From Squalus acanthias (Eukaryota): a stretch of 64,000 nt of DNA. A program made the position numbers and the translations under genes. Each line of letters starts with the position of its first letter. The stretch's first letter is position 1. Location: positions 4,280,001 through 4,344,000 of the forward strand of contig JASTWF010000033.1 of NCBI GenBank assembly GCA_030390025.1, in the 5' to 3' direction. Shown one piece after another: positions 15,572-48,690 of this stretch. The notes beneath the pieces are model-generated. The model saw only the letters and a program-made list of their open reading frames with translations. It had not been told where the DNA came from and made no database searches.

Positions 15572-16965
15572 CGAGATATTTGAGGGACGGCAGATGTCAC
15601 ATCTGACGCCACTGTAAAGAGCATGTCGGTTGTGAGAGGGAGAATATTTCTGACGTGAAGCCGGTTTGAGTCAGACGTAATCTCTAAAGTCCAGGGAATA
15701 TATCCGTAGTTTGTGCAATCTCCCATTGTAATTTGACCCTTGGACAATGTCCATCATTCTGTTAAATCCACGCTTCACTTTTTAAGACTAATATTACCTT
15801 CCTAAGGTGTGAAACCCAGAACTGCACACAGTACTCCAGGTGTGGTCTAACCAGTGCTTTGTATGGCTGTTGCATAATTTCTCCCCCTTATATTGTCATC
15901 CTATAGATATAAGTATCACCTTTCATTCAGCCTTTTTGATTCTTTTCTGTACCTGTCCATGACCATTAAATGATATATGTACATGCACCCTTAAGTGTAT
16001 TTGGATCTCAACTGTTTCCAGCTTAACATTGTATAGAGTGTATTCTAAAAGCCCCTTTTTAGATCCGACGTTGATGACATCACACTTGCTAATATTTAAA
16101 TCAATTTGCCACAGATTTGCCCATTCACTTAATTTATGAATATCTGGGCAAATTTCTTGCTTCCACCTGTACTGCTTATAATGCCGCCTATCTATTTTGT
16201 CATCGTTAAACTTGAATGTGTGACTCTCAATCCCATCAAGTAAGTCGGTAATAAAATCGGCGAATAGATGAGGCCACATAAGAGATTCCTCACGGACACC
16301 ACTCGTCATATCCTGCCAAATAAAGTAACAGATCATTATCCGTAAACGGCGTCTCCTGTCGCGCAAACAATTTCCTAACCAGGACAATAAAACTGTATTT
16401 TGCTCCATGTCTGCCAGCTACTAATGATTTGTGAACTGGGGCTCATAAACCTCTTTACTCCTCAACAGTTAATAGCTTCCAATTATTTAGAAAATACTCC
16501 GAACTATCTCATAATGTTGCAAGGTGGATGCTGTCACACTTGGGCACAGTGAACTCGATTTGCCTTTGTTTTGCCGACTTACTTCGTCTGTCTCTGTCCC
16601 TTTGGTTTGCTCCCGTTCCCATTTGCACTACGACCGGACCTTCTAACTTAGTGCGATCTTCAAACTTGGATCTACAGCGCTCAATTGCTCCATCCAAGTC
16701 AATCGTAAATACGGTGAAAAGTTGAAGATCCAATACAGATATTTGAGGGACGGCAGTTGTCACATTTGACGCCACTGCTAAAGAGCATGTCGCTTGTGAG
16801 AGGGAGAATATTTCTGGCGTGAAGCCGGTTTGAGGCAGTCAATCTGGATTTGTGGGAGAAATGAGCTGTACAGGCTGGATTATGGACAAGAAAATGGAAT
16901 TTGTCGAAGGTGCAATGATGCACTGCAGCCAATGAAAGTCCTTTTGTGAGATCGAGTGAGCAAGA

Positions 16966-17038
16966 GCCCCGATAGCTCAGTTGGTAGAGCATCAGACTTT
17001 TAATCTGAGGGTCCAGGGTTCAAGTCACTGTTCAGGCG
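16966..17038 (+). tRNA. trnK: tRNA-Lys(UUU) copy 1, full length, probably a pseudogene
   Basis: 73-nt match to vertebrate GCCCGGATAGCTCAGTCGGTAGAGCATCAGACTTTTAATCTGAGGGTCCAGGGTTCAAGTCCCTGTTCGGGCG with acceptor-stem and T-stem mismatches; TTTT downstream. Confidence 0.85.
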
Positions 17039-18745
17039 CTGCTTTTAAATCACGATATTCATTTCCACATTCGTGCTCTGATCCTTCAGCAATGAGAATA
17101 ACAACAGAACAAGGCATTTCAACCGCTCGATGCTTTCTGCCATTCAATTGGATCTGTGATCGAACTCCGTTTGCATCCCTTTGCTCCAGATCCCTTCATA
17201 TCTTTGGTTGACCAACATCTGTCAATCTCAAGTTTAACATTGCAAATTGAACCAGATTTAAGTGCTGTTTGCGGAAGTGTGTTACAAATTTCTGACACCC
17301 ATTCCATGTGGAAGCCTTTCCTAACTTCTCTCCTCAAAGGCTTGGAACTAATGTTGAGTCTGTGTCCCGTACTCCTGGACGGGCCAATCATCGGAAATAG
17401 CTTCGCACTATCAGTTCCACTTAATATCGCGAATACTTCAATCAAATCACCACGTAAGCTTCTAAATTCCAGGGAATATATTCCTAGTTTGTGCAATCTC
17501 CCATTGTAATTTGTCCCTTGGACTCTGTGTATCATTCTGGTAAAGCTACGCTTTACTTTTTAAGCCTAATTTTACCTTCCTAAGGTGTGATGCCCAGAAC
17601 TGCACACAGTACTCCAGGTGTGGTCTATCCAGTGCTTTGTATGGCTGTTGCATAATTTATCCCCCTTATATTGTCATCCTATAGATATAAGTATCACCTT
17701 TCATTCAGACTTTTTGATTATTTTCTGTACCTGTCCATGACCATTAAATGATATATGTACATGGACCCTTAAGTCTATTTGGATCTCAACTGTTTCCAGC
17801 TTAACATTGTATAGAGTGTATTCTAAACGCCCCTTTTTAGATCCGAAGTGGATGACATCACACTTCGCTAATATTTAAATCAATTTGACACAGATTTGCC
17901 CATTCACATGATCTATGAATATCTGGGCAAATTTCTTGCTTCCACCTATACTACTTATAATGCCGCCTATCTATTTTGTCATCGTTAAACTTGAATGTTT
18001 GGCTCTCAATCCCATCAAGTAGGTCGTTAATAAAATCGATGAATAGATGAGGCCACATAAGAGATTCCTCGCGGACACCACTCGTCATATCCTGCCAAAT
18101 AAAGTAACAGATCATTATCCGTAAACTGCGTCTCCTGTCGCGCAAACAATTTCCTAACCAAGACAATAAAACTGTATTTTGCTCCATGTCTGCCAGCTAC
18201 TAATGATTTGTGAACTGGGGCTCATAAACCTCTTTACTCCTCAACAGTTAATAGCTTCCAATCATTTAGAAAATACTCCCAACTATCTCATAATGTTGCA
18301 AGGTGGATGCTGTCACACTTGGGCACAGTGAACTCGATTTGCCTTTTGTTTTGCCGACTTACTTCGTCTGTTTCTGTCCCTTTGGTTTGCTCCCGTTCCC
18401 ATTTGCAATACGACCGGACCTTCTAACTTAGTGCGATCTTCAAACTTGGATCTACAGCGCTCAATTGCTCCATCGAAGTCAATCGTAAATACGGTGAAAA
18501 GTTGAACATCCAATACAGATATTTGAGGGACGGCAGTTGTCACATTTGACGCCATTGCCAAAGAGCATGTGCCTTGTGAGAGGGAGAATATTTCTGGCGT
18601 GAAGCCGGTTTGAGGCAGTCAATCTTGATTTGTGGGAGAAATGAACTGTACAGGCTGGATTAAGGAAAAGAAAATGGAATTTGTCGAAGGTGCATTGATG
18701 CACTGCAGCCAATGAAAGTCCTTTTGTGAGATTTTGTCTGCAAGA

Positions 18746-18818
18746 GTCCCGATAGCTCAGTCGGTAGAGCGTCAGACATTTAATCTGAGGGTCCAGGGTT
18801 CAAGTCCCTGTTCGGGCG
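18746..18818 (+). tRNA. trnK: tRNA-Lys(UUU) copy 2, probably a pseudogene
   Basis: Full length; U33 changed to A (cagacatttaatctg) and acceptor-stem changes. Confidence 0.85.
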
Positions 18819-20532
18819 CTGCTTTTAAATCACGATACTCTTTTCTACATTCGTGCTCTGTTCCTTCAGCAATGAGAATAACAACAGAACTGGGCCTTTC
18901 AACCGCTCGAGCCTTTCTGCCGTTTAATTGTATCTGTGATCGAACTCCGTTTGCATCCCTTTGCTCCAGATCCCTTCATATCTTTGGTTAACCAACATCT
19001 ATCAATCTCAAATTTAACATTGCCAATTGACCCAGATTTAAGTTCAGTTTGCGGAAGTGTGTTACAAATTTCTGTCACCCATTCCATGTAGAAGCCTTTC
19101 CTAACTTCTCTCCTGAAAGGCTTGGAACGAATGTTGAGTCTGTGTCCCGTACTCCTAGGCGGGTCAATCATCGGAAATAGCTTCGCTCTATCGACACTAT
19201 CAGTTCCACCTAATATCGTGAATACGTCAATCAAATCACCACGTAAGCTTCTAAATTCCAGGGAATATATCCCTGGTTTGTGCAATCTCCCATTGTAATT
19301 TGTCCCTTGGACTCTGTGTATCATTCTGGTAAATCTACGCTTCACTTTTTAAGCCTAATATTACCTTCCTAATGTGTGATGCCCAGAACTGCACACAGTA
19401 CTCCAGGTGTGGTCTATCCAGTGCTTTGTATGGCTGTTGCATAATTCTCCCCCTTATATTGTCATCCTATAGATATAAGTATCACCTTTCATTCAGCCTT
19501 TTTGATTCTTTTCTGTACCTGTCCATGACCATTAAATGATATATGTACATGGACCCTTAAGTCTATTTGGATCTCAACTGTTTCCGCTTAACATTGTATA
19601 GAGTGTATTCTAAAAGCCCCTTTTTATTTCCGAAGTGGATGACATCACACTTCGCTAATATTTAAATCAATTTGCCACAGATTTGCCCAGTCACATAATC
19701 GATGAATATCTGGGCAAATTTCTTGCTTCCACCTATACTGCTTATAATACCACCTATCTATTTTGTCATCGTTAAACTTGAATGTTTGGCTCTCAATCCC
19801 ATCAAGTAAGTCGTTAATAAAATCGGTGAATAGATGAGGCCACATAAGAGATCCCTCAGGGACACCACTCGTCATATCCTGCCAAATAAAGTACCAGATC
19901 ATTATCCGTAAACTGCGTCTCCTGTCGCGCAAACAATTTCCTAACCAGGTCAATAAAACTGTATTTTGCTCCATGTCTGCCAGCTTCTAATGATTTGTGA
20001 ACTGGGGCTCATAAACCACTTTACTCCTCAACAGTTAATAGCTTCCAATTATTTAGAAAATACTCCGAACTATCCCATAATGTTGCAAAGTGGCTGCAGT
20101 CACACTTGGGCACAGTGAACTCGATTTGCCTTTTGTTTTGCCGACTTACTCCGTCTGCCTCTGTCCCTTTGGTTTGCTCCCGTTCCCATTTGCACTACGA
20201 CCGGACCTTCTAACTTAGTGCGATCTTCAAGCTTGGATCTACATCGCTCAATTGCTCCATCCGAGTCAATCGTAATTACGGTGAAAAGTTGAAGATCCAA
20301 TACAGATATTTGAGGGACGGCAGTTGTCACATTTGACGCCATTGCTAAAGAGCATGTCGCTTGTGAGAGGGAGAATATTTCTGGCGTGAAGCCGGTTTGA
20401 GGCAGTCAATCTGGATTTGTGGGAGAAATGAGCTGTACAGGCTGGATTATGGACAAGATAATGGAATTTGTCGAAGGTGCAATGATGCACTGCAGCCAAT
20501 GAAAGTCCTTTTGTGAGATTTTTTCAGCAAGA

Positions 20533-20597
20533 GCCCGGATAGCTCAGTCGGTAGACTTTTAATCTGAGGGTCCAGGGTTCAAGTCACTGTTCAGGCG
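20533..20597 (+). pseudogene. trnK: tRNA-Lys(UUU) pseudogene with 8-bp deletion
   Basis: ggtagacttttaatctg: GCATCAGA is missing, removing part of the D stem and anticodon stem. Confidence 0.9.
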
Positions 20598-22304
20598 CTG
20601 CTTTTAAATCACGATATTCATTTCTACAATCGTGCTCTGATCCTTCAGCAATGAGAATAACAACAGAACAAGGCATTTTAACCGCTCGAGCCTTTCTGCC
20701 GTTCAATTGGATCTGTGATCGAACTCCGTTTGCATCCCTTTGCTTCCAGATTCCTTAATAGTTTGGTTAACCAACATCTGTCAATCTCAAGTTTAACATT
20801 GCCAATTGACCCAGATTTTAATGCTGTTTGCGGAAGTGTGTTACAAATTTCTGCCACTCATTCCATGTAGAACCTTTCCGAACTTCTCTCCTGAAAGGCT
20901 TGGAACTAATGTTGAGTCTGTGTCCCGTACTCCGAGACGGGCCAATCATCGGAAATAGCTTCGCTCTATCGACACTATCAGTTCCACCTAATATCCTGAA
21001 TACTTCAATCAAATCACCACGTCAGCTTTTAAATTCCAGGGAATATATCCCTAGTTTGTGCAATCTCCCATTGTAATTTGTCCATTGACATCTGTGTATC
21101 ATTCTGGTAAATCTACGCTTCCCTTTTTAAGCCTTATACTAAGGTGTGATGCCCATAACTGCAAACAGTACTCCAGGTGTGGTCTAACCAGTGCTTTGTA
21201 TGGCTGTTGCATAATTTCATCCCCATTATATTGTCATCCTATAGACATAAGTATCACCTTTCATTCAGCCTTTTTGATTCTTTTCTGTACCTTTGCATGA
21301 CCATTAAATGATATATGTACATGGACCCTTAAGTCTATTTGGATCTCAACTGTTTCCGCTTAACATTGTATAGAGTGTATTCTAAAAGCCCCTTTTTAGT
21401 TCCGAAGTGGATGACATCACACTTCGCTAATATTTAAATCAATTTGCCACAGATTTGCCCATTCACATAATCGATGAATATCTGGGCAAATTTCTTGCTT
21501 CCACCTGTACTGCTTATAATGCCGCCTATCTATTTTGTCATCGTTAAACTTGAATGTTTGGCTCTCAATCCCTTCAAGTAAGTCGTTAATAAAATAGGTG
21601 AATAGATGAGGCCACACAAGAGATCCCTCAGGGACACCACTCGTCATATCCTGCCAAATAAAGTAACAAATCATTATCCGTAAACTGCGTCTCCTGTCGA
21701 GCAAACAATTTCCTAACCAGGTCAATAAAACTGTATTTTGCTCCATGTCTGCCAGCTACTAATGATTTGTGAACTGGGGCTCATAAACATCTTTACTCCT
21801 CAACAGTTAATTGTTTCCAATTATTTAGAAAATACTCCGAACTATCTCATAATGTTGCAAAGTGGCTGCAGTCACACTTGGGCACAGTGAACTCGATTTG
21901 CCTTTTGTTTTGCCGACTTACTCCGTCTGCCTCTGTCCCTTTGGTTTGCTCCCGTTCCCATTTGCACTACGACCGGACCTTCTAACTTAGTGCGATCTTC
22001 AAACTTGGATCTACATCGCTCAATTGCTCCATCCGCGTCAATCGTAAATACGGTGAAAAGTTGAAGATCCAATACAGATATTTGAGGGACGGCAGTTGTC
22101 ACATTTGACGCCACTGCTAAAGAGCATGTCGCTTGTGAGAAGGAGAATATTTCTGGCGTGAATCCGGTTTGAGGCAGTCAATCTGGATTTGTGGGAGAAA
22201 TGAGCTGTACAAGCTGGATTATGGACAAGAAAATTGAATTTGTCGAAGGTGCAATGATGCACTGCAGCCAATCAAAGTCCTGTTGTGAAATTGAGTCAGC
22301 AAGA

Positions 22305-22369
22305 GCCCGGATAGCTCAGTCGGTAGACTTTTAATCTGAGTGTCCAGGGTTCAAGTCCCTGTTCGGGCG
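22305..22369 (+). pseudogene. trnK: tRNA-Lys(UUU) pseudogene with 8-bp deletion
   Basis: Same deletion as the copy at 20533. Confidence 0.9.
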
Positions 22370-24075
22370 CTGCTTTTAAATCACGATATTCATTTCGACA
22401 ATCGTGCTCTGATCCTTCAGCAATGAGAATAACAACAGAACAAGGCATTTTAACCGCTCGAGCCTTTCTGCCGTTCAATTGTATCTGTGATCGAACTCCG
22501 TTTGCATCCCTTTGCTCCAGATTTCTTAATACTTTGGTTAACCAACATCTGTCAATCTCAAGTTTAACATTGCCGATTGACCCAGATTTAAATGCTGTTT
22601 GCGGAAGTGTGTTACAAATTTCTGCCACTCATTGCATGTAGAAGCCTTTCCTAACTTCTCTCCTGAAAGGCTTGGAACTAATGTTGAGTCTGTGTACCGT
22701 ACTCCTAGATAGGCCAATCATCGGAAATAGCTTCGCTCTATCGACACTATCAGTTCCACCTAATATCGTGAATACTTCAATCAAATCACCACGTCAGCTT
22801 TTAAATTCAAGGGAATATATCCCTAGTTTGTGCAATCTCCCATTGTAATTTGTCCCTTGGACTCTGTGTATCATTCTGGTAAGTCACCGCTTCACTTTTT
22901 AAGCCTAATACTAAGGTGTGATGCCCAGAACTGCACACAGTGCTCCAGGTGTGGTCTAACCAGTGCTTTGTATGGCTGTTGCATAATTTCTCCCCCTTAT
23001 ATTGTCATCCTATAGACATAAGTATCACCTTTCATTCAGCCTTTTTGATTCTTTTCTGTACCTGTCCATGACCATTAAATGATATATGTACATGGACCCT
23101 TAAGTCTATTTGGATCTCAACTGTTTCCAGCTTAACATTGTATAGAGTGTATTCTAAAAGCCCCTTTTTATTTCCGAAGTGGATGACATCACACTTCGCT
23201 AATATTTAAATCAATTTGCCACAGATTTGCCCATTCACATAATCGATGAATATCTGGGCAAATTTCTTGCTTCCACCTGTACTGCTTATAATGCCGCCTA
23301 TCTATTTTGTCATCGTTAAACTTGAATGTTTGGCTCTCAATCCCATCAAGTAAGTCTTTATAAAATCGGTGAATAGATGAGGCCACATAAGAGATCCCTC
23401 AGGGACACCACTCGTCATATCCTGCCAAATAAAGTATTAGATCATTATCCATAAAATGCGTCTCCTGTCGCGCAAACAATTTCCTAACCAGGTAAATAAA
23501 ACTGTATTTTGCTCCATGTCTGCCAGCTACTAATGATTTGTGAACTGGGGCTCATAAACCTCGTTACTCCTCAACAGTTAATAGCTTCCAATTATTTAGA
23601 AAATACTCCGAACTATCTCATAATGTTGCAAGGTGGCTGCTGTCACACTTGGGCACAGTGAACTCGATTTGCCTTTTGTTTTGCCGACTTACTCCATCTG
23701 TCTCTGTCCCTTTGGTTTGCTCCCGTTCCCATTTGCACTACGACCGGACCTTCTAACTTAGTGCGATCTTCAAACTTGGATCTACATCGCTCAATTGCTC
23801 CATCCGAGTCAATCGTAAATACGGTGAAAAGTTGAAGATCCAATACAGATATTTGAGGGACGGCAGTTGTCACATTTGACGCCACTGCTAAAGAGCATGT
23901 CGCTTGTGAGAGGGAGAATATTTCTGGCGTGAAGCCGGTTTGAGGCAGTCAATCTGGATTTGTGGGAGAAATGAGCTGTACAGGCTGGATTATGGACAAG
24001 AAAATGGAATTTGTCGAAGGTGCAATGATGCACTGCAGCCAATGAAAGTCCTTTTGTGAGATTGAGTCTGCAAGA

Positions 24076-24140
24076 GCCCGGATAGCTCAGTCGGTAGACT
24101 TTTAATCTGAGGGTCCAGGATTCAAGTCCCTGTTCGGGCG
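24076..24140 (+). pseudogene. trnK: tRNA-Lys(UUU) pseudogene with 8-bp deletion
   Basis: Same deletion as the copy at 20533. Confidence 0.9.
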
Positions 24141-25840
24141 CTGCCTTTAAATCACGATATTAATTTCTACAATCGTGCTCTGATCCTTCAGCAATGAGAA
24201 TAACAACTGAACAAGGCATTTTAACCGCTCTAGCCTTTCTGCCGTTCAATTGGATCTGTGATCGAACTCCGTTTGCATCCCGTTGCTCCAGATCCCTTAA
24301 TATCTTTGTTTAACCAACATCTGTCAATCTCAAATTTAACATTGCCAATTGACCCAGATTTAAATGCTGTTTGCGGAAGTGTGTTACAAATTTCTGCCAC
24401 TCATTCCGTGTAGAAGACTTTCCTAACTTCTCTCCTGAAAGGCTTGGAACTAATGTTGAGTCTGTGTCCTGTACTCTTAGACGGGCCAATCATCGGAAAT
24501 AGCTTCGCTCTATCGACACTATCAGTTCCACCTGATATCGTAAATACTTCAATCAAATCACCACGTCAGCTTTTAAATTCCAGGGAATATATCCCTAGTT
24601 TGTGCAATATCCCATTGTAATTTGGACTCTGTGTATCATTCTGGTAAATCTACGCTTCACTTTTTAAGCCTAATACTAAGGTGTGATGCCCAGAACTGCA
24701 CACAGTACTCCAGGTGTGGTCTAACCAGTGCTTTGTATGTTTGTTGCATAATTTATCCCCCTTATATTGTCATCCTATAGATATAAGTATCACCTTTCAT
24801 TCAGCCTTTTTGATTCTTTTCTGTACCTGTCCATGACCATTAAATGATATATGTACATGGACCCTTAAGTCTATTTGGATCTCAACTGTTTCCAGCTTAA
24901 CATTGTATAGAGTGTATTCTAAACGCCCCTTTTTAGATCCGAAGTGGATGACATCACACTTCGCTAATATTTAAATCAATTTGCCACAGATTTGCCCATT
25001 CACATAATCGATGACTATCTGGGCAAATTTCTTGCTTCCACCTATACTGCTTATAATGCCGCCTATCTATTTTGTCATCGTTAAACTTGAATGTTTGGCT
25101 CTCAATCCCATCAAGTAAGTCGTTAATAAAATCGTTGAATAGATGAGGCCACATAAGAGATCCCTCACGGACACCACTCGTCATATCCAGCCAAATATCG
25201 TAACAGATCATTATCCGTAAACTGCGTCTCCTGTCGCGCAAACAATTTCCTAACCAGGACAATAAAACTGTATTTTGCTCCATGTCTGCCAGCTACTAAT
25301 GATTTGTGAACTGGGGCTCATAAACCTCTTTGCTCCTCAACAGTTAACAGCTTCCAATTATTTAGAAATTACTCCGAACTATCTCATAATGTTGCAAGGT
25401 GGATGCTGTCACACTTGGGCACAGTGAACTCGATTTGCCTTTGTTTTGCCGACTTACTTCGTCTGTCTCTGTCCCTTTGGTTTGCTCCCGTTCCCATTTG
25501 CACTACGACCGGACCTTCTAACTTAGTGCGATCTTCAAACTTGGATCTGCAGCGCTCAATTGCTCCATACAAGTCAATCGTAAATACAGTGAAAAGTTGA
25601 AGATCCAATACAGATATTTGAGGGACGGCAGTTGTCACATTTGACGCCACTGCTAAAGAGCATGTCGCTTGTGAGAGGGAGAATATTTCTGGCGTGAAGC
25701 CGGTTTGAGGCAATCAATCTGGATTTGTGGGAGCAATGAGCTGTACAGGCTGGATTATGGACAAGAAAATTGAATTTGTCGAAGGTGCAATGATGCGCTG
25801 CAGCCATTGAAAGTCCTTTTGTGATATTTAGTCCGCAAGA

Positions 25841-25913
25841 GACCGGATAGCTCTGTAGGCAGAGAATAAGACTTTTTATCTGAGGATCCAGGGTTCAAGT
25901 CCCTGGTCGGGCG
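25841..25913 (+). pseudogene. trnK: Degenerate tRNA-Lys(UUU) pseudogene
   Basis: Full length with many substitutions in the D arm and anticodon arm; B box GGTTCAAGTCC retained. Confidence 0.85.
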
Positions 25914-26406
25914 CTGTTTTTAAATGACGATATTCATTTCTACAATCATGCTCTGATCCTTCAGCAATGAGAATAACAACAGAACAAGGCATTTTCACCG
26001 CTCGAGCCTTTCTGCCGTTCAATTGGATCTGTGATCGAACTCCGCTTGCATCCCTTTGCTCCAGATCCCTTAATATCTTTGGTTAACCAACATCTATCAA
26101 TCTCAAGATTAACATTGCCAATTGACCCAGATTTAAGTGCTGTTTGCGGAAGTGTGTTACAAATTTCTGCCACCCATTCCATGTAGAAGCCTTTCCTAAC
26201 TTCTCTCCTGAAAGGCTTGGAACTTATGTTGAGTCTGTGTCCCGTACTCCTAGACGGGCCAATCATCGGAAATAGCTTCGCTCTATCGACACTATCAGTT
26301 CCGCTTAATATCGTGAATACTTCAATCAAATCACCACTTCAGCTTCTAAATTCCAGGGAATATATCCCTAGTTTGTGCAATCTCGCATTGTAATTTGTCC
26401 CTTGGA

Positions 26407-26670
26407 AAAAGAAATTCCACATTCCGTACCATCCCCAAAGTTCTGGAATGGTGGAACGAATGAACCGAACCTTGAAAAGAGTCTGAGCCAAGGCTTCAGG
26501 GGACAAACATCAGCAGTGTGTTGATGTGTTACGGCAAGTCTTAATGAAACTGAGAGCCACCCCAAACCGAACAACGGGCTTATCACCATATGAGCTAACG
26601 ACGGGGAGCGCAATGCAACACCCCCATGGCATAATAACTGGGGAAGACGATGTGGGTCCTCTAAAGGATA
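26407..26670 (+). pseudogene. pol: Retroviral integrase core, C-terminal part (before the CR1 insertion)
   Basis: Manual translation KFHIPYHPQSSGMVERMNRTLKRV*AKAS...LMKLRATPNRTTGLSPYELTTG contains the catalytic E motif. Confidence 0.9.
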
Positions 26671-26761
26671 CATAGATACATAGAAGATAGGAGCAGGAGT
26701 AGGCCATCCGGCCCTTCGAGCCTGCTCCGCCATTTAATGAGATCATGGCTGATCCTCCAAT

Positions 26762-29633
26762 TCAGTATCCCGTCCCCGCCTTCTCTCCGTAACCCTTAAC
26801 CCCTTTTGCCTGTAGAAATATATCTAATTCCCTCTTAAATATATTTAATGAGCTGGCGTACACTGCCCTCTGTGGCAATGAGTTCCACAGGTTCACCACC
26901 CTCTGAGTGAAGAAATTCCCCCTCATTTCTGTCCTAAATGGTTTAGCCCTTATCCTTAAATTATGTCCTCTAGTTCTGTTCTCACCCGCCAACGGAAACA
27001 TTCCTTCTGCATCTAGTCTGTCTAGACCTGTCAGAATTTTATACACTTCTATGAGGTCCCCTCTCAATCTTCTAAACTCCAGTGTGTACATCCCTAAACT
27101 ACATAGTCTCTCCTCATAGGTCAATCCCGCCATTCCTGGTATCAGCCTGGTGAATCGCCGCTGCACCCCTTCCATGGCAAGAACATCTTTCCTCAGATGA
27201 GGCGACCAAAACTGTACACAGTACTCGAGGTGTGGTCTCACCAGTGCCCTGTACAGCTGCAGCAAGGTATCCCTGTTCCTGTATTCCAACCCTTTTGCTA
27301 TGAAGGCCAGCATACCTTTTGCCTTCTTGACCGTCTGTTGCACCTGCATGCTCGCCTTCAGTTACTGGTGTACAAGAACACCCAGGTCTCTCTGTACTTC
27401 CCCCTCTCCCAATTTATTGCCATTTAAATAATAATTTGCCCTCCCGTTCCTGCACCCAAGGTGGATAACTTCGCACTTGTCCACATTATAGTGCATCTGC
27501 CATTTATCCGCCCAATCACCCAGTCTGTCCAAATCGCTCTGGAGCGTCCTGGTCTCCTCCTCTGAGCCCACCCCCCCCCCCTCCTAGTTTAGTGTCGTCT
27601 GCAAATTTGGAAATGCTGCATCCGACTCCCTGATCCAGGTCATTAATGTAAATTGTGAACAGCTGGGGACCCAGGACAGATCCCTGCGGCACCCCACTTG
27701 TTACTGCCTGCCATTCAGAAAATGAGCCGATTATTCCAACTCTCTGTTTTCTATCTGACAGCCAGTTCACTATCCACGTCAATACTTTCCCCTTTATCCC
27801 ATGAGCTTCAATTTTCCATGCTAATCTTTTATGTGGGACCTTGTCGAAGGCCTTTTGGAAGTCCAGGTACACCACATCTACTGGCTCTCCCCCATCTATT
27901 TTACCAGTTACTCCCTCAAAAAATTCCAATAGATTAGTCAAGCACGATTTACCCTTTGTAAATCCATGTTGACTCTGTCCTATCCTGTCCCCATTTGCTA
28001 AGTGCTCCGCTATTTCATCCTTAATGATGGACTCCAGCATTTTGCCCACAACTGATGTAAGGCTTACAGGTCTGTAATTACCTGCTTTTTCCCTACCCCC
28101 CTTTTTGAATAGTGGGGTAACGTTAGCTACCCTCCAATCCATGGGCACTGTTCCCGAGTCTAATGAATTCTGAAAAATCATACTTAGTGCATCCGCTATC
28201 TCTAGGGCCACCTCCTTCAGTACCCTAGGATGCATGTTATCAGGCCCTGGGGATTTGTCCGCCTTCAATCCCTTTAGCTTCCTTAACACCATATCCTTAG
28301 AGATATTGATTTGCGTCAGTTCCTCCTTTGCCAATGTCCCTATTTTTCCCGATATCCCAGGGAGGTTTTTTGTGTCTTCCTTCGTAAAGACTGACCCAAA
28401 GTATGCATTTAGTTGGTCTGCCATTTCCTTATTTCCCGTTATATATTCCCCCGTATCTGACTGCAATGGACCAACTTTGGTTTTCACCAGTCTTTTCCTC
28501 TTGATATACTTATAAAAGCTTTTGGAGTTAGTTTTTATATTTTCCGCCAGCTTGCTTTTGTAAGCTATTTTGCCCCTCTTGATTAAGCCCTTTGTCCTCC
28601 TTTGCTCCATCTTAAACTGTTCCCAATCTTCCGCTCTGGCGCTTTTTTTGGCTATTTTATACGCCCTATCTTTGGACTTTATGCTGTCTATAATTTCCCC
28701 TGTTATCCACGGTTGAGTCACCTTTTTAGATTTCCTTTTATGCCAGATTGGTATAAACAATTTTTGCAATTTTGTCATTCTATCATTAAATGCTTGCCAT
28801 TGTTTATCTACCTCCAGTCCTCCCAGGAACGTTGTCCAATCAGACCTACTCAGTTCCCGTCTAATGGCATCATAATTCCCCTTGTTTAAATTCAGGACCT
28901 TAGTCTCTGAGTCAATTTCTTCGCTCTCCATTTCGAGTGAGAAATCGATCATGTTATGATCGCTCTGACCCAAGGGTCCCCGTACAACAAGATTACTAAT
29001 TAGTCCCTTCTCATTGCACAGTACCCAGTCCAATATAGCCTGTTCCCGAGTTGGTTCCTCGACATATTGATCCACATAACCATCCCTTAAACACTCAAGG
29101 AATTCCTCCTCCTCATTATTTTTACTGATTAGGCTAGTCCAATCTATATGTAAGTTAAAGTCACCTATGATGACAGCTGTGCTCTTATGGCACGCTTCTC
29201 TAATTTCCCTCGTGATGCCCTCCCCAACCTCTATTTTACTATTTGGAGGCCTATATACCACTACTATTAATGTTTTTCGCCCCTCGCTATTTCTTAGCTC
29301 CACCCATATAGATTCTGTATTAACTGAGTTAATATCCTTCCTTTCAATTGCATTTATCCCCTCTTTTACCAGCAATGCTACCCCTCCTCCCTTTCTTTTT
29401 TGTCGATCCTTCCTAAATACTGAATACCCCTGTATGTTAAGCTCCCAGCCCTGCTCACCCTGCAACCATGTTTCCGTAATCCCAATTAGATCATAATTAT
29501 TAACCTCTATTTCCACAGCTAATTCATCTACCTTGTTCCTGATGCTTCTCGCATTAAGGTATAAAACCCTCAGGCTTTTTTTATGCTCACATTTTTTATG
29601 AATTAGTTTGGCCCTTTGTTTTTTGTTCCTCAC
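26762..29633 (-). pseudogene. CR1 ORF2 (APE endonuclease + reverse transcriptase), two lesions
   Basis: 705-aa ORF ([33 protein letters not shown]); frameshift in the G/C homopolymer near 27571-27581; in-frame TAA at 27362; C-terminus 26762..27349. Confidence 0.93.
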
Positions 29634-29707
29634 TCTTTTACCATTTATTTCTGTCTGCCTTTCACTTTCCTCTATTTCACTACATAGGTTTCTAGCCCCC
29701 TGCCATA

Positions 29708-30655
29708 CTAGTTTAAATGCTCCCGAACTGCTTTATCAAAAATTACCCCGAGAACATCAGTTCCATCTTTGCACAGGTGTAGACCGTCCCTTTTGTATAG
29801 GTCACACCTACCACAAAACTGGTTCCAATGCCTCAAAAATTTAAAACCCTCCCTCTTACACCACTGCTCAAGCCACGTATTTAGCCTAACTATCCTGTTC
29901 TCTGTACTCTTACTAGCACGTGGCACTGGTAGTAATCCAAAGATTACTACCTTCGAGGTCCTACTTTTTAGCTTGGCTCCTAAATCCCTAAATTCTACTT
30001 GTAGGACCTCTTCCCTTTTTTTAGCTACGTCGTTGGTACCAACATGTATCACGACAACTGGCTGTTCCCCCTCCCCCTCCAGAATGTTCTGCACCCGCGC
30101 CGAGACATCCTTGACCCTTGCACCAGGGAGGCAACATACCATCCTGGAGTCTCGGTCGCGACCACAGAAACCCCTATCTATTCCCCTTACAATCGAATCC
30201 CCTATTACTATAGCCATGCCACTCTTTTTCCCTCCCTTCTTTGCAACAGAGCCAGTCATGGTGCCATGAGCCTGGCTGCTGGTACCTTCCCCCGATGAGT
30301 CATCCCCCCCGACAACAGCACCTAAGGCGGTGAACCTGTTGCTAAGGGAGACAACCCCAGGGGATTTCTGCACTACCTTCCTGCCCTTGCTCTGCCTTTT
30401 GGTCACCCATGTACTATCTACGCTGGCCTTAACCTGCGGTGTGACCAACTCACTAAATGTGCTATCCACAACCCTCTCAGAATCGTGGATGCTCCAAAGT
30501 GAGTCCATCCGCAGCTCAAGGGCCATCATGCGGTCCCACATGAGCTGCAGCTGGACACACTTCCCGCACACATGGTTGTCAGGGACACAAGAAGCGTCCC
30601 TGATTTCCCACATGTTACAGAAGGAGCATGACACAGGTCCGAGCTCTACTGCCAT
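29708..30655 (-). CDS. CR1 ORF1 protein, 315 aa (Cys-rich finger + coiled coil + SGNH/GDSL esterase domain)
   Basis: Uninterrupted ORF with CSFC...HVCGKC, a heptad leucine stretch, GDSI, PGAR, GTND and DGLH blocks. Confidence 0.9.
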
Positions 30656-31101
30656 GACTTAACCCTTATATTACTTTTTAATTTTCTAGTTTTAGTTTAT
30701 TTATTGACTTTTGTTTTCCCGAAGCTTACTTAGACCAATGTGTACTGTACTCCTCTTATTCCTTTTTAAACTAACCAAATCCCACTAGTTTTAGTTTTAC
30801 TTTCTAGGAAGGTTTGAGGAAAGTAATTACCAGTTAGTCTTACCTCCCTGGTCTTTCGCTGACTTCCCGGTCTTGTGTCCCGTTGGTCCTACGCCGACTT
30901 CCCGCTCCTCCCGGTAACCGTTCTGCCCTGCTGAAAAGAAACTGAGACCAAAAAATTTGTGACCTCTGTTTTTAGACTGCTAAAAGACTAGTAGGTTAGA
31001 GGAGGAGGGCGGGCGGGGGTTCCTACTCTGTAGGAACTCGGGTTTAAGCCACCACCCTCCTTAAATGCCGTTCACCTGGGTACTTCCCACCTGGTCCGCT
31101 T

Positions 31102-31731
31102 CCGGCCTCGTCGCTCCCGACAACAGCCGTTGAAGAAAAGCCCGCGAAAGTGAGTTCAAGTACTCACAGCAACTCACAGCACCTCCGGTCTCGTCGCTCC
31201 GGACAACAGCCTGTGAAGAAAAGCCCGCGAAAGTGAGTTCAAATACTCACAGCACCTCACAGCACCTCCGGTCTCGTCGCTCCCGACAACAGCCTGTGAA
31301 GAAAAGCCCGCGAAAGTGAGTTCAAATACTCACAGCACCTCACAGCACCTCCGGTCTCGTCGCTCCCGACAACAGCCTGTGAAGAAAAGCCCGCGAAAGT
31401 GAGTTCAAATACTCACAGCACCTCACAGCACCTCCGGTCTCGTCGCTCCCGACAACAGCCTGTGAAGAAAAGCCCGCGAAAGTGAGTTCAAATACTCACA
31501 GCACCTCACAGCACCTCCGGTCTCGTCGCTCCCGACAACAGCCTGTGAAGAAAAGCCCGCGAAAGTGAGTTCAAATACTCACAGCACCTCACAGCACCTC
31601 CGGTCTCGTCGCTCCCGACAACAGCCTGTGAAGAAAAGCCCGCGAAAGTGAGTTCAAATACTCACAGCACCTCACAGCACCTCCGGTCTCGTCGCTCCCG
31701 ACAACAGCCTGTGAAGAAAAGCCCGCGAAAG
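31102..31731 (-). repeat. 83-bp tandem monomers (~7.6 copies) forming the CR1 5' end
   Basis: ccgg(t/c)ctcgtcgctc starts at 31102, 31185, 31268, 31351, 31434, 31517, 31600 and 31683; the outer copies are identical. Confidence 0.95.
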
Positions 31732-31735
31732 GATA

Positions 31736-32033
31736 AGCTCCGAAGGTATGTCCTCGAATTAAGCAGTCAATTAAAGGAAATGAGGCAGCAAACGCGGGAC
31801 AGACAGGGAGAAAAGGATAGGGATTTAGTATTGATCGCTTTCCCATATATCCCTCCAGCCGGGACTAAGGTAATGGTTAAAGGTTTACCAGGAAAACCCG
31901 GGTTTGCCCCAAGATGGTCAGGACCACATCAGATTCTAATTAGTGGAGATACGTGTGCTTGCATTGATATGAAGGGCTGGGACGATGGAAGCACTGGACA
32001 CAGCTAAAAGTCTATGATCCTTCGCCAGCTTAA
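31736..32033 (+). pseudogene. pol: Retroviral integrase C-terminus (after the CR1 insertion)
   Basis: KLRRYVLELSSQLKEM...GTKVMVK...FAPRWSGPHQIL (GPY/F-like), then after a frameshift RWKHWTQLKVYDPSPA*. Confidence 0.85.
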
Positions 32034-32035
32034 AA

Positions 32036-32263
32036 ATGGCTACAAGAGAGCATGTACCTTTTGTGGGAAGTGAAGAATATGTTAGACAATTCAAAGAATG
32101 GGAATGGGCGCTAGTACGGACGATGGTATGGACAATATGCATTGTCATAATGGGATACACTATGGGATGCATCGTGAAGCATGTACGGGAACAATCCCAT
32201 CGACTCCAACCGGTCGAGCAGGAGGAGGGAATCCAAATGATTATTATCGAGGAACCAGGCTAA
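32036..32263 (+). CDS. Putative retroviral accessory protein, 75 aa, one hydrophobic segment
   Basis: ATG in aaaATGG context 2 nt after the pol stop, preceded by the acceptor-like tccttcgccAG (32028). Hydrophobic WALVRTMVWTICIVIMGYTMGCIV, then a basic patch and an acidic tail. Confidence 0.5.
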   Translation: MATREHVPFVGSEEYVRQFKEWEWALVRTMVWTICIVIMGYTMGCIVKHVREQSHRLQPVEQEEGIQMIIIEEPG

Positions 32264-32367
32264 TGACAGTATTCTTTCCACCCCCACAGGAAAATAGAAT
32301 ATTCAAGCAACAAAGCGGTTCAGTTGGCGATATAGCCTTTGGGATATTGTTAACATAAAGTGATAAG

Positions 32368-33508
32368 ATGAACGTGTTACGCAATATCAGGTGTAGTTTC
32401 CTAGTTTGTATAATCATAATATGTAGCCTCGGGAGGACTCAGGCTATAGTACCCCCATGGCCAAAAGAGGGTTACGGGTGAACACATTTTTATATATATC
32501 ATGCACATATGCCAAGAGAGTTGATGCTGCCAGCTGTTGGGTCTGCGCCCATGTCCCCACACACTCGGAGGAAGGAGTCCCCTTACAACTAAACCCACTT
32601 AGTGATGATGAGACGGTCAGTTGGATGTTTGGAGTTAGAGCAGGATGCACAAGTGTGGGCTGTTATGAAGCCAAGACAGACGGCAGAACTATAGCAAAGC
32701 TGCAACGTCATGGGTACAACCGAGAATATTGTAGTGGGTGGACACGGTCAACGTATAACGATTACTAACTACCACCGTTCCTTAGAACGAGGAGTAAGAA
32801 GGGACAAAGGGGGGGGACTATGTCTCGTAAAGAGGGGACGACCGACAGATCCTATTGTGGGCAACATTAACAGCACATATAACATTGCCTTGCCTGGTGA
32901 GCCGGGTAGTGTGAAACTCCCATCACGAAACGAAAGCGGTAACTTTTCAGTACAATGGGACCCCCCAGAGGTAAATAAGTATACCTCCTACAACGGGACT
33001 CATTTCGTGTGCGGTCATAGGGCCTATCCCTGGTGGCCCGAGAATGCAGCGGGTAAATTGGCAAGGGAATCCATTAACATGGCCTCCGTCTTGGAGCAGG
33101 TGGCCAACGATACAGCTGAAGCCCTAGCTAAGGTTAATGCAGAGATGGTCCCTCCGCATAGTAGCTCTACAACATCGGATGGCCCTTGACTATGTGTTGG
33201 CGGAAAAAGGGGGAACCTGTGCCCTAATAGGTACAGAATGTTGTACCTACATACCAGATAACTCGAAACCAATAACTAACTTGGCTGAACACATACAGGA
33301 AGAAGTAAAAACATTAAAACAACCTCCGGCATCCACCCTTTGGGGCTGGGCAACTGGATGGTAGGGATCACTCGGGACAGCAGTAGTACAAGGATTGATT
33401 TTGTTCATTGTTATAATATTAGTGATGTATAGTCTGGCCCTATTGTTAAAATGTTGTTGCGCTAAAATGTCACGGCCTGCTGTAAGTGTCATGATGGTTA
33501 ATGAATGA
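32368..33508 (+). pseudogene. env: Gamma-type retroviral envelope (SU/TM), frameshifted and internally deleted
   Basis: Signal peptide MNVLRNIRCSFLVCIIIICSLG, CWVC, NGTHFVCG..AYPW, immunosuppressive domain LQHRMALDYVLAEKGG, CX6CC (CALIGTECC), TM anchor GLILFIVIILVMYSLALLL. Confidence 0.92.
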
Positions 33509-33680: not shown

Positions 33681-34167
33681 TGTTAGAGTAAAAATTATAG
33701 GGCTTCAAGAATGTAATAAATTCGTAAATTCAGAATGGTTTTGCTAACACAGTGAGATGAGTAATGTCTGTGTTCAACATGCATACGTCCGAGGCCCACC
33801 AAGATAATAATAGTACAACGGTTACACTTGAGAACCAATCACCGCCTGGCCAGCCAGTCCGACTAGACAGAGTTGACACAACATTTCGATGTTTATAGTT
33901 TCGATAGGGAAGTAACATTGTTTAGCTTAAAGTGCAGTTTATAATTAGAAGTCTGTTGCTGGGGGAATGTGATTGGGTGAAGACTTTTGTATGTAATGAA
34001 TTGCGTAACGACCCTATAATGTATAAAATAAGTTTCGATACCACTGTAACGATGAGAAGTGGATCACTAGACCGCGGGGTCGATGGCTCCTTCCCAGAGC
34101 GCTCTGTTAAATAAACTGTGATCTTCTGCTTTGAGAGTGACTCGAGTGAATTAATTTTTCACCTGCA
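33681..34167 (+). mobile_element. ERV 3' LTR (preceded by the polypurine tract aggagggat)
   Basis: TG...CA termini, TATAAAA near 34022, AATAAA at 34110; U5 matches the solo LTR at 6357-6915. Confidence 0.88.
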
Positions 34168-42599: not shown

Positions 42600-43918
42600 C
42601 CCCAAATCTCAGAGTAACTCTTCTCACTTTTCCCATCTCCCTGTACTATTCCGATTACTGCTTGGGCTCCCGGAGCCCCTTACCTATCCGAAAGACTGTT
42701 CGCAAACTTTTCTCTAAAATATATATCTTCCATTTCGTTTTTACTTTCCAACCCGATAAGAATGCCTTGTAACATTATAGACTGAACCCGTCCTCGGCAC
42801 GTTTCGAAAACAACAACCCTGACTCGGCTCGCCAATTTGTAGAGATTCACCTATCTTTGGTAAACAGTTTCGAGTGCAAACCAATATCGTGGGTACATTG
42901 TGTTTAATCGGAGTTTAGTACGAATATAACACACTAGTAAAACAGCAAAAACATACGACCGTGACAAGCAGCTGGTATCAGACCCGATCAGCATGCGTAA
43001 ACAGTTCTCTGGCCTCTTCTCCCTCTCTCTCCGTCGATAGAACCTCCAATGCTGAGCATGGGCTCGCTCTCAATAAGAGCGTTCGACCAGCCCAACTTCT
43101 CTTTGCAACTTCTGTTCGGATCTCCCCTCCACCGTCTGTGGGCAAGCCCTTGGAGTTTCACTTTTTATTCTCCCTTTAGGGTTGGGCCTGAGGCCAAGTT
43201 ATTGACAAGACCAGTTAATCGGTAGAGGTTCCTCTAAAACTTCATCAACCAATGGCAGCTCAAGTTCTTTTTCTTGGATCTTGGATGAAAGCCTTCCCCA
43301 AAAGAGGGTCTCATCACTTCATCCAATTTATCTTTCTTGTTTTTCCATTTAAAGGTTCCTCCATTGGAATCCATCTTATCTCCTTTGAAAATATCCTCCT
43401 TAACCCAGCAAGTATAAGGCCCGCCCCTGTCCCTCTTAATCATGGCCCCAGCTAGAGCTGTTGCACATTAGCCAGTTGCTATCTCACCTTCATCTAGCAA
43501 ATGGCCCATTCTAAGATGGATAGCTTAGCCTCCTCAAATGTCTTTCATTCTATGCCTATTCCTAATTCACTTTTAATTATCTTGAAAAGCAATTCTGCTG
43601 AACAAATCCAAATTCTATCTGTGGAGATTATAATATGGTTCTTAGTAACAATGCAAGAAACAGGTTGGGCCTTCACTGGCCAAATTAAAGATACATAATC
43701 AAAGTCAAAACCCTAACTTACAAACCACAGATAACGTGCCTGACAGGACCATCCTATGGGCCCCCGTGTGGAATGTTAATGTTTCCCCTAATCTAACTGA
43801 TTAAAAAGACTGTCTCAAATTGTAATGCATGCTTTCCAGGAAAACGGAACTTATCATTTAAACACAGCATTATTCATGCAGCCATATTCATTTTTAGGCA
43901 CCCCTAGTTTCGAAGACA
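42600..43918 (-). mobile_element. Mirror 5' LTR (42838-43918, ~1.08 kb, undeleted) + PBS + leader
   Basis: Reverse complement of 14719-15571 plus extra sequence at ~42911-43390; the PBS appears as gactcggctcgcca at 42821-42834. Confidence 0.75.
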
Positions 43919-46643
43919 TTGCACTGTTCTATTGCATTGCAAATAACAATCATATTGCAAAGCGATATTCCATTGCAATGTGCTATTGCCTTGCAAATGA
44001 CTATTACATTGAACGTGATATTCCATTGCAATGTTCTATTGCAATACAAATATCTACGATATTCCTAAGTTATATTCCATTGCAATGTGCTATTGCATTG
44101 TAAATGACTATTATAATGCAAAGTGATGTTCCATTGAAATGTGCTATTACATTGCAAATGACGATTATATTGCAGCGATATTTCATTGCAATGATCTGTT
44201 GCATTGCAAATGACTATTATATGGCAAAGTGATATTCAAATGCAATGTTCTATTGCATTGCAAATGTCGATCATATGGCTAAGTGATATTACAATGCAAT
44301 GTACTATTGCATTGCAAACGACTATTATATCTAAAGTTATGTTCCATTGCAATGTTCTGTTGCATTGCAAAAGACTATTATATTGCAAAGTGATATTCCA
44401 TTGCAATATGCTATTGCATTGCAAATGACGAATATATTGCCAAGTGATATTCCATAGTAATATTGTATTACATTACAAATGTGTACTGTACTGTTAAGTG
44501 ATATTCTATTGCGATATTTTATTGCATTGCAAATGATTATTAAAATGCAAACGTAATTTCCATTGCAATGGTCTCTTGCTTTGCAAATGACGTTTCTATT
44601 GCAAAGTGATATTCCATTGCAATGTTCTATTGCTTTGCAAATGACTACTATATCCTTAATTGATATTCCATTGCAATGTGCTATTGCATTGCAAATGGCT
44701 ATTGAATTGCAATCTGATTTTCCATAGCAATGTAATATTGCATTGCAATTGACTATCATATTGCAAAGTGATATTCCATTGCAATGTTCTATTGCATTGC
44801 AAATGACGATGATATTGAAATGATATTTCCTTGCAATGTTCTATTTCATTGCAATTGACTATTTTATGGCAAAGTGATATTCAATTGCATTGTGCTATTG
44901 CAGTGCAAATTAATATTATATTGCAAAGTGATATTCAATTGCAATGTGCCATTGCATTGCAAATGACTATTATATTTCAAAGTGATATTCCATTGCAATA
45001 TGCTATTGCATTGCAAATTTCGAATCTATTGCAGAGTGATATTCCATTGCAATGTGTTTTGCATTGCAAATGACTAATATATTGCTAAGTGATATTCAAT
45101 TGCAATAGTCTATTGCATTACAAATGACTAATATACTGTTAAGTGATGTTCCTTTGCAATATTATATTGCAGTGCAAATTATTTTTACAATGCAAAGTGA
45201 AATTTCATTGCAACGTTCTCTTGCTTTGCAAATGACGATTCTATTGCAAAGTGATATTCCATTGCAATGTTCCATTGCTTTGGATATGACGATTCTATTC
45301 CAAAGTGATATTCCATTGCATTGTTCTATTGCATTACAAATTACTACTATTTCCTTAATTGATATTCCATTGCTATGTGCTACTGCATTGCGATTGAGGA
45401 TTATATTGCTAAGCGAAATTCTATTAGAATGAGCTAATGCATTGCAAATGACTATTTTTTGCAAAGTGATATTCCATTGCAATGTTCTATTGCATTGCAA
45501 ATGACGATTATATTGCAATGATATTTCGTTGCAATGTTCTGTTGCATTGCAAATGACTATTACATGGCAAAGTGATACTCCATTGCAATGTTCTATTTCA
45601 TAGCAAATGACGATCATATTGCTAAGTAACATTCCATTGTCATGTGCTATTGCATTGCAAATGAATATTATATTGCAAATTGATATTCCATTTCAATGAT
45701 GTATTGCTTTGGATATGACGATCCTATTGCAAAGTGATATTCCATTGCTATAATCTATTTCAAAACAAATGACTACTATACTGTTAATTGATATTCCATT
45801 GAAATATTCTATTTAATTGCAAATTATTATTACAATGCAAACTGAATTTCCATTGCAATGTTCTCTTGCTTTGCAAATGACGATCCTATTGCAAAGTGAT
45901 ATTCCATTGCAATGTTCTATTGCTTTGCATATGACGATTCTATTTCAAAATGATAATCCATTGCAATGTTCTATTGCAATACAAATGACTACTATATCCT
46001 TAATTGGTATTTCCTGGCAATGAACTATTGCATTGCAAATGGCTATTGAATTGCAAAGTGATATTCCATTGCAATGTGCTATTTCATTGCCAATTACTAT
46101 TATATTGCAAAGTGATTCTCCATTGCAACACGCTATTGCATTTCAAATGACTGTTATATTTTAAATTAATATTACATTGCAATGTTCTGTTGCATTGGAA
46201 ATAAGTATTATATATGAAATGTGATACTCCATTGAAATGTTCTATTGCATTGTAAATGACTATTATATTGCAAAGTGATATTCCATTGCAATGTGCCAAT
46301 GCATTGCAAATGACTATTATATTATAACTTTGTATTAGAATGCAAACTTCTATTGCATTACAAATGACTACTATTTTCTTAAGTGATTTTCCATTGCAAT
46401 GTGCTATTGCATTGCAAATGACGATTATATTGCAGTGATATTTCATTGCAATGTTCTATTGCATTGCAAATGACTATTATATTGCAAAGTGATATTCCAT
46501 TGCAATATGCTATTGCATTGCAAATGAATGATATATTGCAAAGTGATATTCCATTGCAATATGCTATTGCATAGCAAATGACGAATATAAGCAAAGTGAT
46601 ATTCCATTGCAATATTGTATTACATTAGAAATGACTACTATAC
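43919..46643 (-). repeat. 54-bp satellite block (inverted)
   Basis: Reverse-complement units. Confidence 0.95.
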
Positions 46644-47539
46644 TGTGTACGGAAGGCTGATATTTGAAGATATTTAGTGTACGAGAATCATATATGTATA
46701 ACTTCAAGTGTAGCCATTGACCAAATAATATAGCCCACAATTACTCCTGGGTAGCTACAATCTCAGAATTGTTCAAAATGTAGTGCGCAGTCTGAAGCAG
46801 TTTTGACTAAACTTTGATAACAAACAGTTACAGGCTGCTAGTGCAGGACAAATCATTAAATTACATACTACGATGCTAAGTAGAACTTAGATTTCGCTTA
46901 ATAAAACTAATCACAACAATATTTAAAGAATAATTTGTATAAAGACATAAAATGAGAGAGATCATGGAGATAAGGTATTTAGCTGGTAGATTAAAGTGAG
47001 ATAGTCTGCATACCTCAAGACGAGTGAAACAGAGCTGATATGGGCCCTTGGTATAAAGGCCTTGTACCAGGGAAGCTCGAGATGAAAGAGATAAAGTCAA
47101 TTCCAATGGGGTGCAAATTTATAAACAAGATAACACTGAACAAGGCAAAGTTGGTGGAAAAATACTGGAAAGGCGGGATGCTAACTTAGTCGAAGTGACA
47201 ATGGTATGTTAACCATTAGAACCAATTATAGAAGGTGATTTTGTTGAAGACCATATATGTACACTGGCCAAACGAAGTTATTGATAAGAAAAGGGTTTAA
47301 ACCGCGATACTCAAAGAACAATTTTACACAGACGTACTGCGAGAACAGAGGAAAAGATTTAAGACGACGTCATCTGTATCCGAGAGGTTCCAGAGACCTA
47401 GGGCTGCGAGCTACTCGCTAAAACTATGGCCGAATATTAAGTATATTACGCTGTATGATTAATAAATCTTGATCTATTGCTCAAACATACTGGCTGCTGC
47501 CTATTGATGTATTGTCGAAGAACTCAGAGATCATTAACA
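46644..47539 (+). mobile_element. Mirror copy of probable solo LTR 11311-12206
   Basis: Near-identical reverse complement; AATAAA at 47461; TG...CA ends. Confidence 0.72.
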
Positions 47540-48690
47540 TCTTAAGTGATATTCCATTGCAATATTCTATTGCACTGCAAATTATTGTTACAATGCAAAC
47601 TGAAATTCCAAATGCATTTTTCTCTTGCTTATGAAATGACGAATCTATTGCAAAGTGATATTCCATTGCAATGTTCTATTGCATTGCAAATGACGATTAT
47701 ATAACAATGATATTTCATTGCAATGTTCTATAGCATTGTAAATGACTATAATATGGCAAAGTGATATTCCATTGCAATATTCTATTGCATTGCAAATGAA
47801 TATTATATTGCAGGCGATATTCCATTGCAATGTGCTATTGCATTGCAAATGACTATTATATATTACAAGTTATGTCCCATTGCAATGTTCTATTGCATTG
47901 CAAATGACTATTATATTGCAAAGTGATATTCAATTGAACATTGCTATTGCGTTGCAAATGATTAACATATTCCAAAGGGATATTCCATTGCAATTTGCTT
48001 TGCATTGCAAATTACTATTATATTGCAAAGTGATATTGCATTGCAATCTTCTATTGCATTGCAAATGACGCTTATATTGCAATGATAGTTCATTGCAATG
48101 TTCTATTGCTTTGCAAATAACTATTATATGGCTAAGTGATATTGCATTGCAATGTTCTTTTGCATTGCAAATTACGATCATATTGCTAAGTGATATTCCA
48201 TTGCAATGTGCTATTGCATGGCAAATGAATATTACATTGCTAATGATCTTCCATATCAACGTTCTATTGCATCACAAAGGACTACTGTGCTTTTAACTGA
48301 TATTGCATTGCAATATTCTATTGCATTGCAAATGACGATCATATAGATAGAAATTCCATTGCAATGTTCTATTGCATCACAAATGACTATTACATTGCAA
48401 AGTGATATTCCATTAGAATGAGCTAATGCATTGCAAATGACTATCAAGTAGCAAAGTGATATTCCATTGCAATGTTCTATTGCATTGCAAATAAGTATTA
48501 TATTGCAAAGTGACATTCCATTGCAATGTTCTATTGCATTGCAAATAAGTATTAAATTGCAAAGTGAAATTCAATTGCAATAAGCTATTGCATTAAAAAT
48601 GACGAATATATTGCAAAGTGATATTCCATTACAATGGGTTTTGCATTTCAAATGACTATTACATTGCGAAGTGATATTCCATTGCACTTA
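47540..48690 (-). repeat. 54-bp satellite block (inverted)
   Basis: Reverse-complement units. Confidence 0.95.

Follow-up and report, generated by a model that had tools for sequence, protein, structure and literature searches.

Does the short open reading frame (ORF) that lies between the remains of pol and env in an endogenous retrovirus (ERV) of Squalus acanthias encode a protein and, if it does, what might that protein have been for? A first-pass annotation of the window (the whole 64,000-nt stretch of DNA analysed here), made from its letters, had proposed an accessory gene with its own splice acceptor, in a layout analogous to that of lentiviral vpu, while granting that a frame of this length can stay open by chance. 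The observation is partly confirmed and the interpretation partly supported. Comparison of sequences makes it probable that the small ORF is a real accessory membrane-protein gene of this ERV family, derived from an infectious ancestor and now sitting in a dead copy. The features concerned are collected in Table 1.

Table 1. Features of the provirus, its inserted LINE and the small ORF, in window positions
Feature	Position	Strand	Basis
Integrase core piece of provirus, 5' of LINE	26487..26670	+	frame 26487-26675
LINE, 5,057 bp, within integrase	26671..31727	-	ORFs 27516-29732 and 29708-30658, minus strand
pol 3' end (integrase C-terminal part)	31728..32033	+	translations; stop 32031-33
Strongest acceptor-like site, within integrase; candidate acceptor for small ORF	31831..31858	+	rank 1/139
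Acceptor proposed in the first-pass annotation, weak	32013..32028	+	AG 32027-28; rank 15/139; without branch-point consensus
Small ORF (75 aa), probably encoding an accessory single-pass membrane protein	32036..32263	+	
Amphipathic Trp-rich helix, residues 12-27, before membrane segment	32069..32116	+	P0001 comparison
Predicted membrane segment, residues 29-47	32120..32176	+	best 19-residue Kyte-Doolittle mean 1.91
ExxxM[IV], non-canonical acidic leucine-type sorting-like motif, residues 64-69	32225..32242	+	motif search
Probable env splice acceptor: branch point, pyrimidine tract, AG	32260..32289	+	rank 2/139
env, gamma-type, broken in this copy	32368..33508	+	Pfam TLV_coat, syncytin-1, translations
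3' LTR, behind purine-rich tract	33681..34161 (right end approximate)	+	sequence; AATAAA 34110-34115

Repeat-rich vertebrate DNA, with LINEs and a 54-bp satellite, fills the window throughout, and the provirus has itself been split by a LINE. This insertion, which we take to be of CR1 type, is apparently full length, with open frames of 738 and 316 aa and an 83-bp tandem array at its 5' end, and is flanked by a target-site duplication of 8 bp (26663-26670 and 31728-31735). In relatives the DNA is continuous here: a contig from one run (X2) goes from 31732 straight into letters matching 26638-26667 and, since it spans the site without the LINE, both pieces of integrase belong to a single gene. 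The first-pass annotation does not mention the split, nor a frameshift near 31975-31985 in the tail of pol. A search across the 64-kb window for further internal-gene pieces of the provirus found none, gag and reverse transcriptase (RT) included. The pol 3' end matches Pfam IN_DBD_C weakly and short of the cut-off (E 0.023), and 6 of the 7 contigs among those listed have a gap against the window there. Env is damaged by indels near 32458, 32809, 33036, 33149 and 33505 and by in-frame stops. Its translation has a signal peptide, CWVC, an immunosuppressive domain (LQHRMALD...), CX6CC (CALIGTECC) and a membrane anchor, and it matches Pfam TLV_coat beyond the cut-off (E 1.4e-5) and syncytin-1 (E 2.4e-9); a protein search with its SU piece among longer proteins gave none (0/33 candidates). 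With CXXC in SU and the immunosuppressive domain and CX6CC in TM, the envelope is of gamma type. This class is that of Env alone, the clade of Pol being a matter for RT, which is outside the window, and the label ‘complex retrovirus’ holds only if the small ORF is a gene. With a LINE in integrase, pol and env broken, and gag and RT missing, the copy is dead.

How does the small ORF sit in its surroundings? Pol has its pol-type end, WKHWTQLKVYDPSPA, and 2 nt beyond the pol stop comes an ATG in strong context (A at -3, G at +4) that opens 75 codons closed by a TAA at 32261-63; the pol end, the ATG and the 75-aa frame had been correctly read in the first-pass annotation. The branch-point consensus of the next acceptor overlaps this TAA, so that the frame occupies the whole interval between pol stop and env signals. 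The hydrophobic segment earlier put at ~24 aa is residues 24-47. The protein is without a signal peptide, 28 residues standing ahead of the membrane segment, and an AlphaFold model gives it a single helix (10-57) with loose ends, at pLDDT 81-98 across residues 11-50. Searches with the ORF returned no Pfam family at E up to 1, no host-protein match, no Rfam match, no fold among viral models at E 0.001 and no candidate from a word-index protein search, and scans of viral and metagenome contigs and of phage records found no relatives. The single locus that the scan returned is a phage terminase region, a false match.

A homologue came from a protein search of 1.84 billion cluster representatives, which yielded two matches. 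One, P0002 (E 2.6e-8), was dropped as a repeat-driven match; the other, P0001 (112 aa, E 1.9e-21), covers query residues 1-74 with identity at 47 of the 74 aligned residues (64%), and a two-sequence alignment search found P0001 alone among 11 candidates. P0001 keeps the Met of the small ORF and its aligned end, its hydrophobic peak (Kyte-Doolittle 1.92) has the identical position, and the two indels that separate the proteins are of whole codons, both in the tail. Conservation is best across residues 12-27 (14 of 16 identical), where the hydrophobic moment is up to 0.61 in the window protein and below 0.55 in P0001. ExxxM[IV] occurs in both, across a one-residue indel, against 0.06-0.09 matches per tail expected from composition; canonical [DE]xxxL[LI] and the DSGxxS phosphodegron are absent from the two proteins. 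The acidic tail of the earlier description is real in the window protein, with 5 acidic residues to 1 basic in the last 20, but is only partly kept in P0001 (3 to 2). Six codons were tested in the contigs of related organisms considered below, and at 5 of them the P0001 residue is encoded, from which it follows that P0001 belongs to this ERV family, while the most diverged contig is without one shared change, so that the window copy, that contig and P0001 represent three lineages. Start, frame, end and character of a 75-76-residue protein are kept, then, in diverged members of the family. The recurrence of Met, frame, end and hydrophobic segment in P0001 speaks for what the first-pass annotation had mainly proposed, a small membrane-protein gene between pol and a gamma-type env.

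Might the ORF be a remnant or duplicate of env, keeping the env start and the anchor with its tail, with a full env behind? The usual gamma-type env start adjoins the pol stop, where the small ORF starts, and the best acceptor (31858) is within integrase. Residues 25-52 of the ORF align with the Env anchor of this copy, in a single register in both homologues (hhalign probability 20.7%, pairwise E 0.0011; BLOSUM scores 38 and 41, shuffle p 0.004-0.03). Against this, of 87 controls, unrelated hydrophobic segments taken from the window, one reached a higher summed score (83 vs 79), similarity at the DNA level extends to no more than 12 nt, and membrane helices are alike through composition. An env remnant is on balance unlikely. 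It is compatible with the reading as a gene, and its protein could act on Env trafficking or incorporation; derivation of the gene from Env's own anchor is weakly suggested by the alignment.

Rather unlikely also is a non-coding spacer that holds the env acceptor, its ORF open by chance in a young family. To gauge chance, the window itself was cut on both strands into overlapping tiles of 334 nt, 2,532 in all. An ATG ORF of at least 75 codons is present in 109 of them (4.3%), which favours the spacer, but with an equally hydrophobic segment added just 7 remain (0.3%); an ORF of that length beginning in the first 6 nt is found in 13. The spacer gains, too, from there being a single homologue, and that from a biased search. 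It loses by the nature of the differences from that homologue, which are conservative, with in-frame indels, at 64% identity. By an analytic neutral model, set at the distance yielding this identity, the frame of an unselected copy would be open with P 0.15-0.17 and its ATG present with P 0.56, a combination reached about 1 time in 11, and the 27 substitutions between P0001 and the window protein have a mean BLOSUM62 score of +0.41 compared with a neutral expectation of -0.31 to -0.47 (z 2.2-2.6), figures which flatter the gene since the search favours copies that are open and similar. Positive-scoring substitutions, 13 of the 27, are not significant alone (P 0.07-0.11).

The contigs bear on the same choice. 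They come from four (X1-X4) of eight runs, represent two related organisms and together reach each of the 30 bins of the element; the figures given from them rest on those listed: 40 of 335 differences, 12 of 54 indels, 24 of 92 loose ends and 32 of 306 pieces. Three among those listed cross the small ORF (X2, X3 and X4), being 3.7, 4.9 and 18.7% different from the window; that the close ones are just 3-5% different suits a spacer. Against it, the listed ORF contigs, which are not independent copies, have 65 substitutions and no gap, as compared with gaps in 7 of 7 listed LTR pieces (Fisher p 0.008); with one indel to every 20 substitutions, 65 substitutions would be free of gaps with P 0.04, and with one to every 33, with P 0.14. 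The 13 listed ORF differences include no stop, 12 of 48 differences being listed for the most diverged contig, where a stop among the others is possible. Taken singly, 5 of the 13 are silent and 8 non-silent. There is no clear silent excess in this, a point for the spacer, and none is expected if most of the differences are later mutations of the window copy itself.

Given a gene, is its product a viroporin, an oligomeric ion channel like influenza M2? The size, the single helix and the adjoining amphipathic helix fit, both proteins have a GxxxG-like motif at 40, and clusters of M2 come up at 0.82 and 0.85 in an Atlas feature search. Every Atlas score, however, stays short of 0.9, the level for a lead, the two homologues have different top families, and the segment 29-47 is without a charged or His residue. 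A channel is accordingly an improbable product.

The start of env matters for whether the ORF is a separate gene at all. When the 139 AGs of the element are ranked by pyrimidine content, the site at 32289, also picked out in the first-pass annotation, stands high, with CTAAT, a pyrimidine tract and CAG, its branch-point consensus 26 nt upstream. It is the probable env splice acceptor. The env ATG at 32368 is the first ATG past it and opens a signal-peptide-like stretch. Loose contig ends of X1-X3 at 32372 share DNA through this ATG and then diverge; read by eye, what follows in them is another version of the signal peptide, begun at that ATG, which supports the env start at 32368 and suggests that env varies within the family. 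Again by eye, the 26 codons that separate the acceptor from the env ATG (32290-32367) look similar in the env frame at the end of one diverged contig, and they may belong to Env as an upstream portion or make up a short second exon. Elsewhere in env, contig joints at 32460-33050 and 33078-33179 suggest env variants or deleted forms within the ERV family.

Could the ORF nevertheless belong to Env, as its leader or first coding exon, or to Pol, as a tail made by read-through? P0001 has at its N-terminus 36 further residues, in a frame overlapping the pol end, and in the window a stop stands 12 nt upstream of the env ATG, with contigs of relatives beginning beside it. In the window, however, three stops interrupt this upstream frame, so that the 36 residues are taken as a gene-calling extension, and pol has its own stop. 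Env is read in another frame than the ORF, with 104 nt and an acceptor separating them; the window protein and P0001 finish at a common point, and the ends at 32372 offer another signal peptide on the same env ATG. These readings are quite improbable, and the earlier concern that the segment might be a frameshifted piece of pol or the env leader is allayed by the pol stop and the difference in frame from env.

How the small ORF itself would be reached is another matter. The acceptor proposed for it at 32028 found no support. P0001 has Asn at the codon that opens with this AG and an Asn codon cannot start AG, so that the site is impossible in P0001; it is probably not a conserved signal. The message would be a sub-genomic RNA distinct from env RNA, with candidate acceptors at 31858 or in the pol-stop region. 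Site 31858 has a branch-point consensus 24 nt upstream and five ATGs between itself and 32036. An alternative route might be re-initiation 2 nt past the pol stop. Listed contig joints touch none of 31858, 32028 and 32289 (0/6), the runs not being on record as RNA and the upstream exon lying outside the stretch. The start of an X2 contig at about 32290, with a rise of depth in the next bin in four runs, was discounted because contigs cannot show starts or levels.

A fusogen of the FAST type, acting between cells like sORF2 of insect LTR retrotransposons, is very improbable. FAST proteins and sORF2 of MDG1-group retrotransposons are of 63-107 aa with one membrane segment and an amphipathic ectodomain (PMC11952523), and the length, membrane segment, ectodomain and probable N-out topology of the protein here fit that description. 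An N-terminal myristoylation motif (most members) and a polybasic tract behind the membrane segment, marks of that group, are missing here: neither protein has MGxxxS/T, and the 10 residues past the membrane segment have 3 Lys/Arg in one and 2 in the other. Further, this element owns an env, whereas the elements described there are without a fusogenic one (PMC11952523). Retention of this copy's ORF by the host for its own use is scarcely credible, for though the ORF is intact beside broken pol and env, 228 nt would escape the copy's indel rate with P 0.39, so that intactness here means little, the 5' part of the copy is lost, and at 5 codons the copy departs on its own from what contigs and P0001 have in common.

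If an accessory membrane-protein gene is what the ORF represents, what did the protein do? It would be a single-pass membrane protein made without a signal peptide, its N-terminus outside and its C-terminus cytoplasmic; that orientation, like that of Vpu, is suggested by the want of a signal peptide, the 28 residues before the membrane segment and the charge bias, C minus N, of +1 in the window protein and +3 in P0001. The membrane helix and the conserved Trp-rich juxtamembrane helix may grip a host or viral membrane protein, which the ExxxM[IV] tail may then reroute. By analogy its most likely job would be that of a Vpu-like trafficking modulator, an assignment offered tentatively. More doubtful is the full proposal, that a shark-lineage retrovirus with a gamma Env independently evolved a Vpu-like membrane protein between pol and env, possibly from the Env anchor, which rerouted a host membrane protein. 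Were it true, antagonism between retrovirus and host at the level of membranes would date to the earliest-branching jawed vertebrates and there would be a probe for a shark antiviral factor. A conserved gene of this kind between pol and env would suggest that surveys of gamma-Env ERVs miss short ORFs, and that the lentiviral layout, with a small membrane protein just 5' of env, arose separately in a virus of cartilaginous fish. The protein is short, intact and testable alone, and its binding partners could indicate membrane defence factors of sharks. If the ORF is merely spacer, nothing new follows.

How far does the likeness to HIV-1 Vpu go? As an analogy, limited to layout and architecture, the comparison made in the first-pass annotation stands; Pfam, protein and structure searches gave no sequence, profile or fold match of the small ORF to Vpu. 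Vpu is a small single-pass membrane protein, as the product here is predicted to be, encoded just 5' of env, with an acidic cytoplasmic tail; the tail has an ExxxLV-like motif, where ExxxM[IV] is found here, and ExxxLV links Vpu to AP-1 (PMC6770538). There are differences. Vpu has a minimal outer part and DSGxxS, whereas here 28 residues precede the membrane segment and DSGxxS is lacking, and Vpu shares a bicistronic RNA with env, whereas here env has its own acceptor behind the ORF (PMC6770538).

ERVs of fish and of a crocodilian offer further comparisons. Epsilon-related class I ERVs of fish and amphibians, from six cartilaginous fish among others, likewise have a gamma-type Env, and that survey states no accessory gene for them, in contrast to the conserved pol-env ORF here, though its supplements may include this family (10.1101/2021.11.23.469661). 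Foamy-like teleost ERVs (DrFV-2, PpERV-1 and AcERV) do have pol-env ORFs, under purifying selection; these are of 1,263-1,335 nt, as against 228 nt, membrane-spanning and beside a gamma-type env, in the present case (PMC5210030). Sub-genomic RNAs of snakehead retrovirus, another virus of fish, carry three small ORFs, with 52, 94 and 76 residues, of which ORF1 overlaps pol and ORF2 overlaps env (PMC12193657). In CrocERV29 an extra ORF between pol and env is a captured host KIT-ligand mRNA (PMC4299795); unlike it, the small ORF matches no host protein or Pfam family. A motif search of the elephant-shark ERV supplement, as far as it was accessible, gave no match to the motifs of this ERV family, and one ERV there has, by eye, a signal-peptide-like frame ~45 nt past the pol stop and no such ORF (PMC4422223). 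The accessible parts of seven further sources held no precedent (10.1101/2024.07.05.601823, PMC12690878, PMC3382231, PMC4977317, PMC8672886, PMC6001957 and PMC13517186), and a small pol-env ORF with a gamma-type envelope was not found described in the literature search, which leaves room for annotation in a repeat library.

Several features of the window lie beyond the provirus. Two LTR-like pieces, 6774-6911 (+) and 51856-51995 (-), have ~75% identity to the last 140 nt of the provirus LTR and are probably of a related family. The window has a large inverted duplication, 2042-15249 against 43389-58755, with blocks of 2.5-4.6 kb at 78-93% identity, which includes 54-bp satellite arrays and an LTR-like piece. 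From ~15400 to 26400 run tandem units of ~1.8 kb made of LINE pieces and tRNA-like sequence, and ARAGORN calls tRNA-Lys(TTT) at 16966, 18746 and 39837 (minus strand) and tRNA-Thr at 42295.
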